64,000 nt of DNA from Candidatus Campbellbacteria bacterium (GTDB taxonomy: Bacteria > Patescibacteriota > Minisyncoccia > Phycocordibacterales > JAXHMZ01). The stretch lies in assembly GCA_034521025.1 (NCBI GenBank), contig JAXHMZ010000005.1, forward strand, positions 197,176 to 261,175, in the 5' to 3' direction. Numbering within the stretch: position 1 is the stretch's first letter; each line of letters opens with the position of its first letter. The position numbers and the translations under genes were made by a program. Below the pieces are notes generated by a model. It saw only the letters and a program-made list of their open reading frames with translations. It was not told the DNA's origin and did not search any database. This document shows, one piece after another, positions 21,068 through 34,811 of the stretch.

Positions 21068-21112
21068 CAAGATCAGGCAAGTTTGGCCACAAGTAAAGCA
21101 GAAAACATAAAA

Positions 21113-21140
21113 CAAAACTCCCAAAGTCGGGAGTTTTTGT
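21113..21140 (+). terminator. Intrinsic terminator after fusA
   Basis: Stem actccc / gggagt followed by TTTTT. Confidence 0.65.
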
Positions 21141-21750
21141 TCATTGCATATAGTTGTTAACGTCTACTCAGCCCTGTAGCGTGCTAAAATACACTAGTGT
21201 AATATGAAAAACTTCATAAAAAGACCCCTGCCTTTTCTGCTGGTTATACTGGCTGGATTTAGCTTAGCTGTCACTGCTTTAATAGCCGCTCCTCCGGCTT
21301 CAAAATACTCTCCCGGTGAGACTCTAGACCCTACCTGCGCGCCCGGAGACACCAACTGTAGCGTTGAGACCAACGATGTTTCTTCCAGTACAACTGATGA
21401 TCTATCAGAAGGATCGAGCAATCTCTACTACACCGAAGCGCGCGTCTCCGCCAACTCTGACGTCGCGGCCAATACCACTAGCAGGCACAATGCCCTTTCA
21501 CTCGGTGGTTCTCTGGACTATCTATCACTAACCGGACAAACCCTCACCCTCAACGAGATAGATGTAGGAACAGACACCAACTTAACTGCCGGCAGTGGTG
21601 TTTCTCTTTCCAGCGGCACACTTGACGTTGACACCTCGGGCATAAACGTAGGCGACCTTAACACTAATTTCACTACAGGCTCCATCCCGTTCTCCAACGG
21701 AACGAACCTTACCCAAGACAACACCAATCTGTTTTGGGATGATACGAATG
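21138..21750 (+). repeat. ~610-bp near-identical direct repeat (copy 1), covering the promoter/5'UTR and first ~180 codons of giant gene 1
   Basis: Matches 29079..29692, with 2 mismatches seen by eye (21193 c/t, 21229 a/c). Confidence 0.85.
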
Positions 21751-24700
21751 ACAGGTTGGGATTGGGGACTAATCTTCCAAGTTATTTTCTAGAAGTAGCG
21801 GGAGGCGATGTTTATGTTACTCAGACTCTCACAAATGGTTGGAATTTAAGTAACGCTTCATATGATTCTGTTTCATTTGGAGTATCCGGAGAAGCTCTTG
21901 AACCAACTGGTACCTATTTTAAACCGGATGGAACAAAGATGTATCTTTCAGATCGAAGCTCTAATAATATATATCAGTACACATTATCTACACCCTGGGA
22001 CCTTTCAACTGCGGCCTATGATACTGTTTCTTTTGATGGACAAGCTGGATTTCCTCGGGGTGTATTTCTCAAGTCCGACGGAACGAAAATGTATGAACTG
22101 GACGGAAGTACTACTTATCAATATACATTATCTACACCCTGGGACCTCTCCACCGCATCTTATGATTCAGTATCGTTCAGTGTTTCAGGACAGGAAAGTG
22201 ACGCACAAGGTCTAGCTTTGAAATCAGATGGAACGAAGATGTATGTAATAGGAGATAATAATAATACTGTGTATCAATATGGTCTCTCCACCCCATGGGA
22301 TCTTTCAACTGCCTCTTATGACTCGGTATCGTTTAGTGTTTCGGGACAGGAGGGGATATCGAGAGAACTTGCCTTTAAATCAGATGGAGCAAAGATGTAT
22401 ATTGTGGGAGATGGAGCTAATAGTGTTTTTCAGTACTCTCTCTCTACACCCTGGGATCTTTCAACCGCATCGTACGATAGCGTTTCTTTCGATGTTTCTA
22501 ATGAAGTAACAGATTCACATGGTGTATCTTTCAAAACCAACGGTACAAAAATGTTTGTTCTTGACGGCGACTTTAGTAGTGGAAGGATTTACCAGTATTC
22601 TATGGCTGGAGGTTCAGAAGGAGGTAGTATTTTTGTTGACAACAGTATTGGAATCGGCGCCACCTCGCCTCAAAACGCCCTCGACGTCTCCGGCGCCTCG
22701 GTCATCGGCTCCACCTACGCCGGCACCAACACGGCACCAACCAACGGTTTGCTTGTTGAAGGCAACGTAGGAATAGGCACCACCTCACCCAACACCGCCT
22801 TCGACCTATCCGGCGCCTTCTCTCTCCGCGGTGTCTCAGTCCCATCTACTGCACCTGCCGGACAGGGAAGAATATACTTTGACTCAAGCTCTAACTCGTT
22901 CAAAGTATCCGAGGATGGCAGCTCTTACGAAAACCTTCTCAGTGATGTTTCTGCCGCTGGCTCCGACGGAGCAGTACAATTCAACTCTTCTGGCTCTTTC
23001 GGAGCCGACGACGCCAACTTCTTCTGGGATGATACGAATGACAGGTTGGGGTTGGGGACGGCAACTCCCGGAAACCTCCTCCATCTAGCCGGCGGAGATT
23101 TGCGAATCGAAGAGACAGCTTCGAGCGGAAACTACGATATCTCCACCGCCTCTTTCTCTCAATCTATTTCCACGCAAAACAGCCTTTCGTTAAGTATCGC
23201 TTGGAACGACGACGGTACTAAACTATATGAAACAGGACGTGGCAGTGGTGCCGAACGCTTATACGAATACAATGTCTCCACCCCCTACGACATCTCCACT
23301 GCATCCTTTTCTAAATCTATTCCCACACAAGACTCTTATCCGGAAGGCATTGCCTGGAACGACGACGGCTCCAAGCTATACGAGGTAGGGCAAGGTAGCG
23401 ACCTTATATATGAATATGATGTCTCCACCCCTTACGATATAAATTCCGCCTCCTTCTCCCAATCCATCTCTACACAAGACTCTATTCCACGCGGCATAAC
23501 CTGGAACGACGACGGTACCAAGCTATATGAGATGGGAGGACACAACAGCGAACTCATCTACGAATACGACGTCTCCACCCCCTACGACATCTCCACAGCC
23601 TCTTTCTCCCTGTCCATCTCCACGCAAGACGGCTCTCCAGAAGGCATTGCCTGGAACAACGACGGCTCTAAGCTCTATGAGGTGGGTCGGGGTAGCGATC
23701 TCATATACGAATACGATGTTTCCACTCCGTATAACATTTCCACCGCTTCCTTCTCCCAATCCATCTCTACACAAGACAGTGACCCAACTGGCATCGCCTG
23801 GAACAGCGACGGTAGCAAGCTCTATGAGATAGGATATGATGGGTTGTCAGGCGGCGGTTACATCTACGAATACGACATGGGCAATTCATTCGAAGGCGGC
23901 ACTCTCATCGCCGACACCAGCGTTGGAATTGGCACCACCACCCCCCAAAACGCCCTCGACGTCTCCGGTTCTTCGGTCGTCGGCTCCACCTACGCCGGCA
24001 CCAACACAGCACCGACCAACGGACTACTAGTAGAAGGAAACGTAGGACTAGGCACCACCTCACCCTCCGCCCGTCTCCACTCCCTCTCCACGACAGAGCA
24101 ACTCCGACTCGGCTACGACGCTTCTAACTACCTCTCAGCCACAGTGGGAAGCGCCGGCTCCACCACACTCTCACTCACAGGAACCTCACCGGAGTTCACG
24201 TTCTCCCAACTCGCCAACTTCTCCTCAGGAGTAAACGTAAATAGTGAAACCATCACCGACTTCACCGGCACCGGCCTCACCCTAAACACCAACGCCCTCA
24301 CAGTAGACCAAACCGCACTCAACGTAGAGGGCTTTGCCACTGCTCTCACCGCCGGATCCATCCCATTCTCCGACGGCTCCAACCTCACCGAAGACAACGC
24401 CAATCTGTTCTGGGACAACGCCAACAATCGTCTGGGACTCGGCACCACCTCACCCAACACCCTCCTAGACCTAGCCGGAGCTCTATCCATCAGAGGAATG
24501 TCAGCACCATCCACCGCACCGTCAGGACAGGGAAGAATATACTTTGACTCAAGCTCAAACACCTTCAAAGTTTCCGAAAATGGTGGTTCGTATGAAAATC
24601 TATTGGGAGGAGCCTCCGTTGCCGGCTCGGATGGAGCGGTTCAGTTCAACTCTTCCGGCTCCTTTGGAGCAGACGACGCCAACCTCTTCTGGGACAACTC

Positions 24701-33746: not shown

Positions 33747-33850
33747 GATTCCTCCTTCTTATTAATTTCCTCTTCTATTGTACAGAACCGAGTAGGAAAA
33801 GAAAAATTCCCTGTTTTTTCGGGTCGGTTTAGAAAATAAAAAACTTCCCG

Positions 33851-34441
33851 TTAAGTTAAACGGGAAGTTCGCTTGGACTTCTTTTCCTTTATGAGCATGT
33901 TGTCTGCTGCAATGTAGATCGCCTCTAGGCTGTGCAATCCTTTGGGAACGAACACGAATCCGTAAGAGAAACCAAAGCAGTGGTCAATTTCCCCATCGAA
34001 TTCATTTTGAAAGTATTGGCTGGCGGTTTTGGAAAAAAGGGCGGCAATTCGTTTGAATATCTTCCTGACCTCTTTTTCTGTATTCTCCATTCCCTCAGTT
34101 GTGAGTGCCAAGACGAACTCGTCGCCTCCGTACCTGCCTACCAGGTCTTCACGCTTTATGTTGTGCTCGAATGCTTTTGCAAGCAGTCGGATCAACATAT
34201 CACCGTAAACGTGCCCGTGGCGGTCGTTGACGATCTTCAGACCGTCCATATCGACCATGCAGATCACTTGAGATTGCCTGCGAAGTTTCTCGCGTACCTT
34301 TTCTTCCCAAGGTTTGCGCCGAAGGACGCCTGTCAGGTCGTCCCTTTCGAGCTCCTCGATCCTACTTTCGAGGATACCTATCTCAGACTTTAGACTTTTT
34401 ACTTTATTTTCAAGCAGTTCTTTCTCCAGATCTTGGATCAT
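33851..34441 (-). CDS. GGDEF-domain diguanylate cyclase with an N-terminal coiled coil and no sensor domain
   Basis: 'RYGGDEF' active-site motif and 'DMDGLKIVND..GH..GD'. Confidence 0.8.
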   Translation of the reverse strand: MIQDLEKELLENKVKSLKSEIGILESRIEELERDDLTGVLRRKPWEEKVREKLRRQSQVICMVDMDGLKIVNDRHGHVYGDMLIRLLAKAFEHNIKREDLVGRYGGDEFVLALTTEGMENTEKEVRKIFKRIAALFSKTASQYFQNEFDGEIDHCFGFSYGFVFVPKGLHSLEAIYIAADNMLIKEKKSKRTSRLT

Positions 34442-34811
34442 TTAAGTCCTTCTCCTTTTTTTTTCGTATCGAGAGAATTTTTCTCTGAGTTTTCTTTCGG
34501 GGCAGGGCTTTGTCTCTAGCTATTATTTAGCCATATTTTTTCGTATAAGTCAATGTAATTTGAATTTAATTTAGATAAAATAATTTTTCTTGACTTCTAA
34601 TAGAGCTTTCGCTAGTATACCTCTAACGCGTATGTAGCGCTGTTTTTGTTTGCTGTTATTTGGTATAATAGCAGGCGTTACCTAGCGGGTAATTCGTAAA
34701 ATTATTAGAAGAAAGCTAAATAGTGTAGAAAGGCTAGTCACGCTCACGCATTATCCTCTCTACATTATTAGATTAAAACGAGTTAAATTAACTCAAAATA
34801 AATAAAACGTT

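Follow-up and report, generated by a model that had tools for sequence, protein, structure and literature searches.

A variable fusA-tuf slot with candidate host-recognition fibres in a Candidatus Campbellbacteria genome

In Escherichia coli, the str operon consists of rpsL-rpsG-fusA-tufA. Among replacement islands, the pneumococcal cps locus lies between dexB and aliA, and the O-antigen cluster lies between galF and gnd. The locus described here can be compared with both: it is the segment between fusA and tuf in a 64,000-nt stretch of DNA (“the window”) from a metagenome-assembled genome of Candidatus Campbellbacteria, an ultra-small member of the Patescibacteria or candidate phyla radiation (CPR; contig JAXHMZ010000005.1, positions 197,176-261,175). 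Six genes stand between fusA and tuf, and two of them encode long, fibre-like proteins. The closest described fibres are the MAT proteins of Bdellovibrio bacteriovorus, which have a signal peptide, a constant, β-rich N-domain of ~130 amino acids (aa), a trimeric, meandering shaft bearing capping loops, and tips that can be swapped; some also have an S74 domain, marked by SDxxxK. These fibres take part in recognizing prey (Caulton et al. 2024, PMC10769870). For CPR epibionts, published work on how the host is recognized and held points mostly to type IV pili (PMC12206443).

The segment between fusA and tuf is probably best explained as a non-mobile plasticity slot between two likely independent transcription units, and as a mosaic with at least three histories: a resident array of surface fibres, a thyA-folA operon of CPR ancestry and a small GGDEF protein. 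The fusA neighborhood was fetched for eight related lineages, and the 80 best GTDB loci were examined in addition. The EF-G of the window is 68%–69% identical to that of the best GTDB species representatives, all of them Patescibacteria, and 82%–84% identical to metagenomic ‘Paceibacterota’ proteins. Upstream, the gene order RecJ-RNaseH-ComEC-SOD-MBL-L28-M50-S12-S7-EF-G is common to the window and all eight related lineages, and EF-Tu-S10-L3-L4 follows wherever the relatives’ contigs extend, except in L183. The product of the window’s tuf is 89% identical to that of L085-L087. Between these flanks, eight lineages have eight different contents. Those of the relatives are as follows, with the identity of EF-G:

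L085, EF-G 83%: empty slot of 372 bp
L086-L088, EF-G 82%: a single gene of 487-494 aa, cut by the contig end in L088
L082, EF-G 84%: a 998-aa FG-GAP fibre gene and the start of a second fibre gene
L089/L090, EF-G 78%: a 138-aa RF-1-domain protein
L091/L092, EF-G 79%: two genes of ~185 aa, of no known family
L093-L096, EF-G 78%: a 135-aa protein of no known family
L183, EF-G 76%: a small GGDEF gene, then rplT-rpmI-infC in place of tuf

The slot thus shows presence/absence polymorphism, being empty in L085 and holding other cargo in seven other lineages. L082 and L085 are 97% identical in EF-G, yet differ by at least two genes in the slot, with at least two fibre genes in the former and none in the latter. 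The same junction is enlarged across the phylum. Both fusA and tuf are present in 46 of the 80 GTDB loci, 14 with a CPR-type tuf and 32 others. The gap between the two genes has a median of 1006 bp in the CPR-like loci and exceeds 400 bp in 13 of 14, whereas in other bacteria the median is 115 bp and a single locus of 32, from a Gracilibacteria genome, exceeds 400 bp. The larger gaps in distant CPR genomes contain PG-binding-domain, DKNYY-family and pilin-like proteins. The fusA-tuf junction is a real plasticity hotspot, phylum-wide in the CPR.

These comparisons bear on an earlier, sequence-only reading of the window, which had described an insertion hotspot with lineage-specific cargo. That description is borne out by the empty site at 83% EF-G identity and by the other contents in each other lineage. 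The same reading held that fusA and tuf are adjacent in most bacteria, which is correct outside the CPR (n=32) and wrong for the window’s own phylum (n=14). Its claim that one 13.7-kb island was inserted and split the operon lacks support: the segment is composite, it has no integrase, tRNA or flanking repeats, and an enlarged gap is the rule in the CPR. It also proposed a search for close relatives with the same gene order, and none was found in the 80 GTDB loci or the eight related lineages. A rival idea is that fusA-fibres-folA-thyA-GGDEF-tuf is the ancestral order, from which relatives have lost parts. Fibre genes with the same N-terminal module do lie 3' of fusA in L082 and L086-L088, a small GGDEF gene lies there in L183, and the enlarged gap is general in the CPR. 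However, thyA and folA are in no relative’s slot, and their nearest homologues belong to another conserved cluster in at least three genomes; the contents are wholly different in L089 (RF-1 domain) and in L091 and L093 (small proteins of no known family); and the difference between L082 and L085 implies a very recent change, whichever state is ancestral. An ancestral arrangement of all six genes is accordingly judged unlikely.

Other features of the relatives deserve mention in their own right. First, the 138-aa RF-1-domain slot protein (L089 12197-12613, L090 3304-3720) is possibly a peptidyl-tRNA hydrolase of the ArfB type. Second, in L183 (10001-12916) the str operon is broken at the same junction; the small GGDEF gene is convergent with fusA, and tuf is elsewhere. 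Third, the independent assemblies of L081, L083 and L084 all stop within ~200 bp past fusA, which would fit repeats in the slot or strain heterogeneity. Fourth, some CPR lineages have inserted genes at rpsG|fusA, M50|rpsL and rpsJ|rplC (L093/L094 8133-9719; the rpsG-fusA gap of L076 and L005; L091 7853-8874; L006 14722-19513); among nine close lineages, fusA|tuf is the junction that always differs.

How is the slot built in the window? Genes were called from a map of open reading frames (ORFs) combined with Pfam, NCBIfam and PHROGs family scans. The features are listed in order along the window:

17985-21067, plus strand: left-flank transcription unit rpsL-rpsG-fusA, with upstream synteny common to relatives
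17985-18389, plus strand: rpsL (Pfam and NCBIfam equivalog)
18398-18865, plus strand: rpsG (Pfam and NCBIfam equivalog)
18914-21067, plus strand: fusA (TIGR00484, 1093 bits)
21114-21137, plus strand: terminator-like hairpin of fusA, AAAACTCCC...GGGAGTTTT with a T-run; left border of the slot
21134-21754, plus strand: constant 5' module, copy 1, from 70 nt ahead of fibre gene 1 to nt 551 of its coding sequence
21204-27182, plus strand: fibre gene 1, 1992 aa (Pfam Peptidase_S74, weak SGL match)
27183-29063, plus strand: gene for a 626-aa membrane protein (CarboxypepD_reg domains)
29076-29696, plus strand: constant 5' module, copy 2, with its extended −10 at 29124-29132
29146-32175, plus strand: fibre gene 2, 1009 aa (Pfam S74, PHROGs tail-fibre families)
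32176-32433, no strand: spacer between convergent genes, containing several hairpins; two of these are copies of GTCAACCTnnnAGGTTGAC
32434-32922, minus strand: folA, dihydrofolate reductase (PF00186, 184 bits)
32919-33746, minus strand: thyA, thymidylate synthase of CPR type (NF002497, 344 bits)
33841-33870, minus strand: terminator-like hairpin at the end of the GGDEF gene, with a 12-bp stem and a T-run
33851-34441, minus strand: gene for a stand-alone GGDEF protein, 196 aa (PF00990, TIGR00254)
34442-34585, no strand: AT-rich spacer, 29% GC, without counterpart in relatives; right end of the slot
34590-34618, plus strand: tuf promoter, TTGACT-17-TAGTAT; relatives conserve it whether or not their slot has cargo
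34619-34811, plus strand: tuf 5' leader, conserved and structured
34812-36005, plus strand: tuf (EF-Tu, 699-703 bits), followed by the S10 operon (rpsJ at 36026)

This layout agrees with the sequence-only reading on three points. That reading had rpsL-rpsG-fusA end in a terminator, and a terminator-like hairpin is present at 21114-21137. It had tuf-rpsJ resume at 34812 behind a 370-bp AT-rich promoter region, and the whole spacer ahead of tuf (34442-34811) is 370 bp long, has 32% GC and carries the TTGACT-17-TAGTAT promoter. Finally, its gene calls for the fibre module, the opposite-strand thyA-folA pair and the stand-alone GGDEF gene all hold. Alignment with the relatives places the variable segment of ~13.4 kb from ~21138, past the fusA terminator, to ~34585, before the tuf promoter. 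In the 258-bp spacer between fibre gene 2 and folA, GTCAACCTnnnAGGTTGAC forms a perfect hairpin at 32186-32204 and again at 32327-32345, where 0.02 would be expected by chance; it has no further copy elsewhere in the window.

The borders of the slot coincide with signals for transcription. The T-run hairpin begins 47 nt past the fusA stop codon, and its equivalent follows fusA in every aligned relative, including L082, L086, L088 and the empty-site L085. On the other side, the tuf promoter and the ~190-nt leader of the window are shared with L085, L086 and L087. Because the empty-site L085 already has both the fusA hairpin and the tuf promoter and leader, rpsL-rpsG-fusA and tuf-S10 are probably separate transcription units regardless of cargo. 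With a terminator and a promoter bounding the slot, extra genes there should do little harm. The leader, located at 12340-12526 in L085, 7190-7380 in L086 and 12690-12884 in L089, has a folding z-score of −2.94 relative to shuffled sequences, contains conserved blocks such as AGTCACGCTCACGCATT, and includes one hairpin that keeps its pairing through changes on both sides in four sequences. Rfam, searched at a relaxed threshold, gave no match in either spacer, the tuf leader included. The leader may be an as yet undescribed cis-regulatory element of the tuf-S10 operon in Paceibacteria.

A quite different account of the segment is that a single mobile island or prophage remnant integrated recently and brought all six genes. 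In phages such as T4, td and frd lie side by side. PHROGs contains tail-fibre families that match fibre 2 as well as counterparts of thyA, folA and the GGDEF gene, and the block is missing from all relatives examined, as such an origin would have it. The content of the slot points the other way. No integrase, recombinase or transposase was found among the six slot ORFs in the Pfam, NCBIfam and PHROGs scans, and the spacers are at most 370 bp long. All six ORFs are accounted for, with no capsid, terminase or other phage structural gene beside the fibre-like ORFs. There is no tRNA or tmRNA gene in the 64-kb window, and no direct or inverted repeat flanks the slot; the only long direct repeat is internal and consists of the 5' modules of the two fibre genes. 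Moreover, the matches to phage tail fibres reach just 25%–30% identity and are confined to shaft and S74 motifs, the best ThyA matches are cellular CPR genes (66%–72%), the N-terminal module of the fibres occurs in chromosomal genes at the same site in relatives, and the composition is not clearly foreign. A prophage remnant was rejected on the lack of any other phage gene, integrase or attachment site, and a single imported island of either kind is very unlikely.

Composition merits a closer look, since the sequence-only reading had suggested that the island should be tested for a foreign signature against the ribosomal genes. The values proved to be within or near the native range, with the skew of fibre gene 1 extreme and in the same direction as that of the ribosomal protein genes. 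The GC content at third codon positions (GC3) of the slot genes is 0.38–0.575, compared with 0.435 (standard deviation (SD) 0.06) in the other genes of the window, and their codon-usage distances of 0.105–0.265 overlap the background of 0.163 (SD 0.041). The fibre genes owe their raised GC chiefly to second codon positions, because their products are rich in Gly, Ser, Thr and Ala. A reading of the negative GC skew of the fibre region as foreign or inverted DNA was also rejected: the skew persists at fourfold-degenerate sites (−0.54 in fibre gene 1 and −0.33 in fibre gene 2, against a background of −0.06, SD 0.17), where fusA (−0.33), tuf (−0.32) and the ribosomal protein genes are likewise negative. 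We read it as codon bias of the type found in highly expressed genes rather than as a mark of foreign origin. Avoidance of fourfold codons ending in G is stronger in the two fibre genes, with a G fraction of 0.11–0.16, than anywhere else among the window’s genes, and resembles that of fusA, tuf and the ribosomal protein genes.

The two fibre genes share a direct repeat of 621 bp (21134-21754 and 29076-29696) with two mismatches, so that their 5' ends are 99.7% identical. The repeat includes an extended −10 element, TGCTAAAAT, at 21182-21190 in the first copy, and both proteins begin with MKNFIKRPLPFLLVILAGFSLAVTALIAAPP, in which a basic n-region and a hydrophobic core indicate a signal peptide on inspection. 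From the N- to the C-terminus, fibre 1 consists of the signal peptide, the N-terminal module (N-module), two sets of propeller-like repeats of ~50 aa, shaft repeats, an S74 domain, a coiled coil and an acidic tail. Fibre 2 has the same first ~190 aa, a shaft with GNVGIGTTxP and NFFWDD motifs, an S74 domain and an acidic tail at its end. Both S74 domains exceed the 22-bit cut-off of PF13884: that of fibre 1 lies at aa 1685-1739 and has SSERFK at 1685, with Ser replacing Asp (36.8 bits, 4.8e-9), and that of fibre 2 lies at aa 693-749 and has SDERLK at 693 (59.4 bits, 4.2e-16). Past the repeat, the two genes share segments that are 75%–82% identical and stand in different orders.

The N-module is 50%–55% identical to the start of the gene directly 3' of fusA in L082, L086, L087 and L088. 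Because it occurs in the same slot in these relatives, the fibre family appears to be an old resident. The tandem fibre paralogues of L082 have a 5' region of 271 bp that is 98.9% identical between them. A module that is near-identical within a genome and about half identical between genomes looks like the signature of gene conversion or of repeated recent duplication.

Near-identical repeats of this kind are also a classic cause of misassembly, raising the possibility that the contig is chimeric or misjoined, either in the 621-bp repeat or around the thyA-folA-GGDEF block. In three relatives, independently assembled contigs stop just past fusA, and an exact look-up of the window’s EF-Tu protein in the gene index returned no record. 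Set against this, both flanks belong to one lineage (EF-G 84% and EF-Tu 89% identical to the same relatives), and relatives have fibre genes at this position, including a tandem pair with the same repeat pattern. The two copies of the repeat differ at two positions and run on into different sequences. The window’s ThyA and GGDEF proteins are recorded, at 100% identity, on one 266,769-bp NCBI contig, and the junctions of the thyA-folA-GGDEF block are free of repeats. An artefact is the least probable of the explanations considered, and the slot is treated below as a genuine mosaic.

The 626-aa gene begins directly after the stop codon of fibre gene 1 (TAAATG). Since one stop codon divides the two ORFs, which share a frame, a single interrupted gene was considered; this was rejected because the second has a signal peptide of its own at TAAATG. 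The protein also has CarboxypepD_reg domains and transmembrane helices, and its sequence includes an acidic linker and three GYAW(S/G)E..GWI repeats. Over aa 451-621, at its C-terminus, it is 43% identical to the C-terminal end encoded by the lone slot gene in L086 and L087. That slot gene (L086 5674-7137, L087 2343-3827) is itself a chimera, with a fibre N-module joined to a transmembrane and CarboxypepD_reg C-terminus like that of the 626-aa protein. The 626-aa protein may be a membrane partner of the fibres.

What kind of protein are the fibres? In phmmer searches against the PDB, the shaft of fibre 2 matched MAT structure 8ond (Bd2133; 1.5e-9) and also 8oml, 8ojn, 8ol4 and 8on4. The alignments run through ...MR(I/V)D..GNVGIGT..P..KL.V and include the loop motif GNVGIGTxxPxxKL. 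The MAT capping-loop motif, V-G-G/N-π-x-x-P-x-x-x-L (PMC10769870), occurs five times in fibre 1 and twice in fibre 2. Fibre 2 also matched the S74 domain of MyRF; sequence searches of the PDB gave no match for fibre 1 or the 626-aa protein. Identity between fibre 2 and tail fibres from phages and viral contigs is 25%–35%, over shaft motifs. As judged from these comparisons, the window’s fibres match the MAT description in four of the five features examined. By analogy, their products would be trimeric surface adhesins that recognize the surface of the epibiont’s host cell.

The thyA-folA pair has a different history. The two genes overlap by 4 nt. ThyA scores above the equivalog cut-off of NF002497 (344.2 bits, cut-off 327), whereas FolA is a member at the Pfam level, well over the PF00186 cut-off of 25 bits and under all NCBIfam equivalog cut-offs. 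The 120 best homologues of ThyA are 66%–72% identical to it, and every named one is from Patescibacteria. The three nearest thyA families that can be placed lie in a SHMT-dut-tmk|thyA|dcd|folA cluster for deoxythymidine monophosphate (dTMP) metabolism beside L11-NusG-SecE, away from fusA, and neither thyA nor folA was found in the fusA|tuf slot of the relatives examined. The window’s pair appears to be a derived arrangement of CPR-type genes, because its nearest homologues sit in this separate, conserved cluster. A move within the genome and acquisition from another CPR bacterium are both compatible with this arrangement.

The last slot gene encodes a small protein with an N-terminal coiled coil and a GGDEF domain (PF00990, 83.9 bits, cut-off 23.8; TIGR00254, 86.5 bits, cut-off 37.4). 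The RYGGDEF motif is intact, and the allosteric RxxD inhibition site is degenerate, reading KRED. The protein is a putative diguanylate cyclase. The GGDEF proteins most similar to it are few, small and stand-alone, with 36%–43% identity; one of them is encoded directly downstream of fusA, in convergent orientation, in L183. A small cyclase gene may have stood beside fusA from early on in this group, or two separate arrivals in the slot may account for both cases. A metagenome scan with the single GGDEF protein found no relatives; a scan with an alignment fell to the generic GR[YF]GGDEF pattern and returned unrelated GGDEF proteins, none of them near fusA or tuf.

How might such a mosaic arise? 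The proposed mechanism has three parts, one for each history. In the first, the slot would hold a resident array of surface fibres, each gene having the same promoter, signal peptide and N-module of ~160–190 aa, and then a shaft and tip that are modular and variable, an S74 domain acting as a self-cleaving trimerization chaperone, and an acidic tail; the 626-aa membrane gene would accompany the array. The constant 5' modules, kept near-identical within a genome by gene conversion or recent duplication, could act as recombination anchors that let fibre bodies duplicate, be deleted or be swapped. In the second, a thyA-folA operon of CPR ancestry would have been added to the slot. In the third, the small coiled-coil GGDEF cyclase would be a further addition, or perhaps the older neighbor of fusA. 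Turnover could follow two routes: homologous recombination in the conserved flanks, fusA and tuf, after DNA uptake, and recombination between the constant modules. Site-specific integration would play no part. Predation is coupled to c-di-GMP in Bdellovibrio. In a bolder extension, fusA|tuf would be a site that Patescibacteria devote to exchanging cassettes of MAT-like host-recognition fibres by recombination: new shafts and tips would be swapped in behind the homogenized constant promoter, signal peptide and N-module, setting and changing host range, and the cyclase would couple fibre deployment to c-di-GMP; this is tentative and less likely than not.

Several observations weigh against a resident, largely native mosaic. 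First, the fourfold-site skew of fibre gene 1 is the most extreme in the window, and the GC3 of thyA and the GGDEF gene is ~2 SD over the mean; some import from another CPR lineage would be compatible with these values. Second, the N-module is hard to characterize: its AF2 model, made without an alignment, has a pLDDT (predicted local distance difference test) of 42, and a word-based search with its 190 aa gave eight weak, partial matches and missed known relatives, so the eight matches do not give the size of the family. Third, the closest relatives are 82%–84% identical in EF-G, too distant to resolve the order and timing of gains and losses. Fourth, the genomes with the dTMP cluster may not be close relatives of this one, and what looks like relocation of thyA-folA could be acquisition from another CPR bacterium. 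Fifth, the GGDEF proteins of the window and L183 are 36%–38% identical, which makes positional orthology uncertain.

What are the implications? First, host recognition in the CPR is largely unknown, and this locus gives concrete candidates for host-recognition proteins. They are built like the prey-recognition fibres of Bdellovibrio and the receptor-binding proteins of phages, and they stand at an easily located site that differs between near-identical relatives. Second, should this pattern extend to the whole phylum, the fusA-tuf spacer might be used as a rapid marker for strain-level differences in host range in metagenomes, and the constant 5' module as a handle for amplifying the variable cassettes. 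Third, annotators should be aware that, in the CPR, a split str operon is normal and does not point to a recent horizontal acquisition.

The rest of the window encodes ComEC, glycolytic genes, a long ribosomal protein cluster, nucleotide kinases and ribonucleotide reductase; together with type IV pilus genes, this content fits the assignment to Patescibacteria. The pilus genes, at 11-3564, are a T2SSE ATPase, a T2SSF platform protein and one N_methyl pilin, and two more small ORFs in the same set have low GC3 and unusual codon usage. The ribosomal operons have a cluster of nucleotide-metabolism genes around them: after SecY come guanylate kinase and a tandem pair of adenylate-kinase paralogues (47555-49451), NDK is at 54630-55232 and CTP synthase at 58261-59907. 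An AdoCbl-II (cobalamin) riboswitch (60651-60722, 41.3 bits), the only Rfam match in the window, lies upstream of the ribonucleotide reductase genes (60828-63828), the first of which combines an ATP-cone with a small-chain domain. Just past the ribosomal cluster (50254-54537), a 508-aa protein without a Pfam match precedes a 917-aa protein with weak matches to coupling ATPases of the VirD4/TraG type; the pair may belong to a patescibacterial type IV secretion system (PMC12102498).

The general kind of locus is already known, as a replacement island with surface-protein cargo and as phage-like fibres in a bacterium that attaches to bacteria. In the literature searched, neither a fusA-tuf hotspot nor S74 fibres were found described for Patescibacteria, and S74 fibres at a fixed slot with a homogenized constant module in this phylum appear to be undescribed. 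Compared with the classical str operon of E. coli, the window has the same four genes in the same order and orientation, with the S10 operon next. It differs in the fusA hairpin, in the separate promoter and ~190-nt leader of tuf and in the CPR-wide enlargement of the gap: instead of direct adjacency of fusA and tuf, there is a 13.7-kb gap with a predicted terminator (21114-21137) and promoter (34590-34618). Compared with integrase-borne islands and integrative and conjugative elements at the 3' ends of conserved genes, the slot is similar in its site beside translation genes and its patchy distribution, but it lacks an integrase, a relaxase, attachment-site repeats, a tRNA and a clear compositional break. 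Replacement islands such as cps (dexB/aliA) and the O-antigen cluster (galF/gnd) are closer: they too have a fixed position, conserved bounding genes, contents that differ in close relatives, surface-structure cargo and no integrase or attachment sites, and the window has genes for competence (ComEC) and type IV pili. Unlike these islands, the slot can be empty and its cargo is mixed, with adhesins, nucleotide metabolism and signaling rather than one biosynthetic pathway, and exchange through recombination in the flanks is, for the slot, a process we infer.

The fibres themselves resemble two groups of proteins. Phage tail fibres and tailspikes with Peptidase_S74, such as endosialidase K1F and T5 pb1, share with both window fibres an S74 domain above the Pfam cut-off, and the collar and shaft motifs of the window fibres are common to many viral contigs. 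However, identity to the phage proteins is low, at 25%–30%, no other phage genes are nearby, and the window fibres have a bacterial signal peptide, a conserved cellular N-module and a chromosomal locus kept in relatives. The likeness to the MAT fibres of B. bacteriovorus goes further. In both, a signal peptide is followed by an N-module that is constant among paralogues, then by a repeat shaft with the GNVGIGTxxPxxKL capping-loop motif, an S74 domain with an SDxxxK-type motif and modular, swappable bodies, and in both cases the encoding bacterium lives by attaching to other bacteria. There are also differences. The N-module of the window fibres is ~160–190 aa long, is identical in both paralogues, and is a candidate counterpart of the MAT N-domain. 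MAT proteins end at S74, whereas the window fibres continue for ~250 residues, with a coiled coil and a tail that is 38%–40% Asp/Glu. Fibre 1, with its two propeller-like repeat sets, is double the length usual for MAT proteins. Finally, the window genes stand in tandem at one fixed chromosomal slot, their 5' ends 99.7% identical, and the organism belongs to the CPR and lacks an outer membrane.

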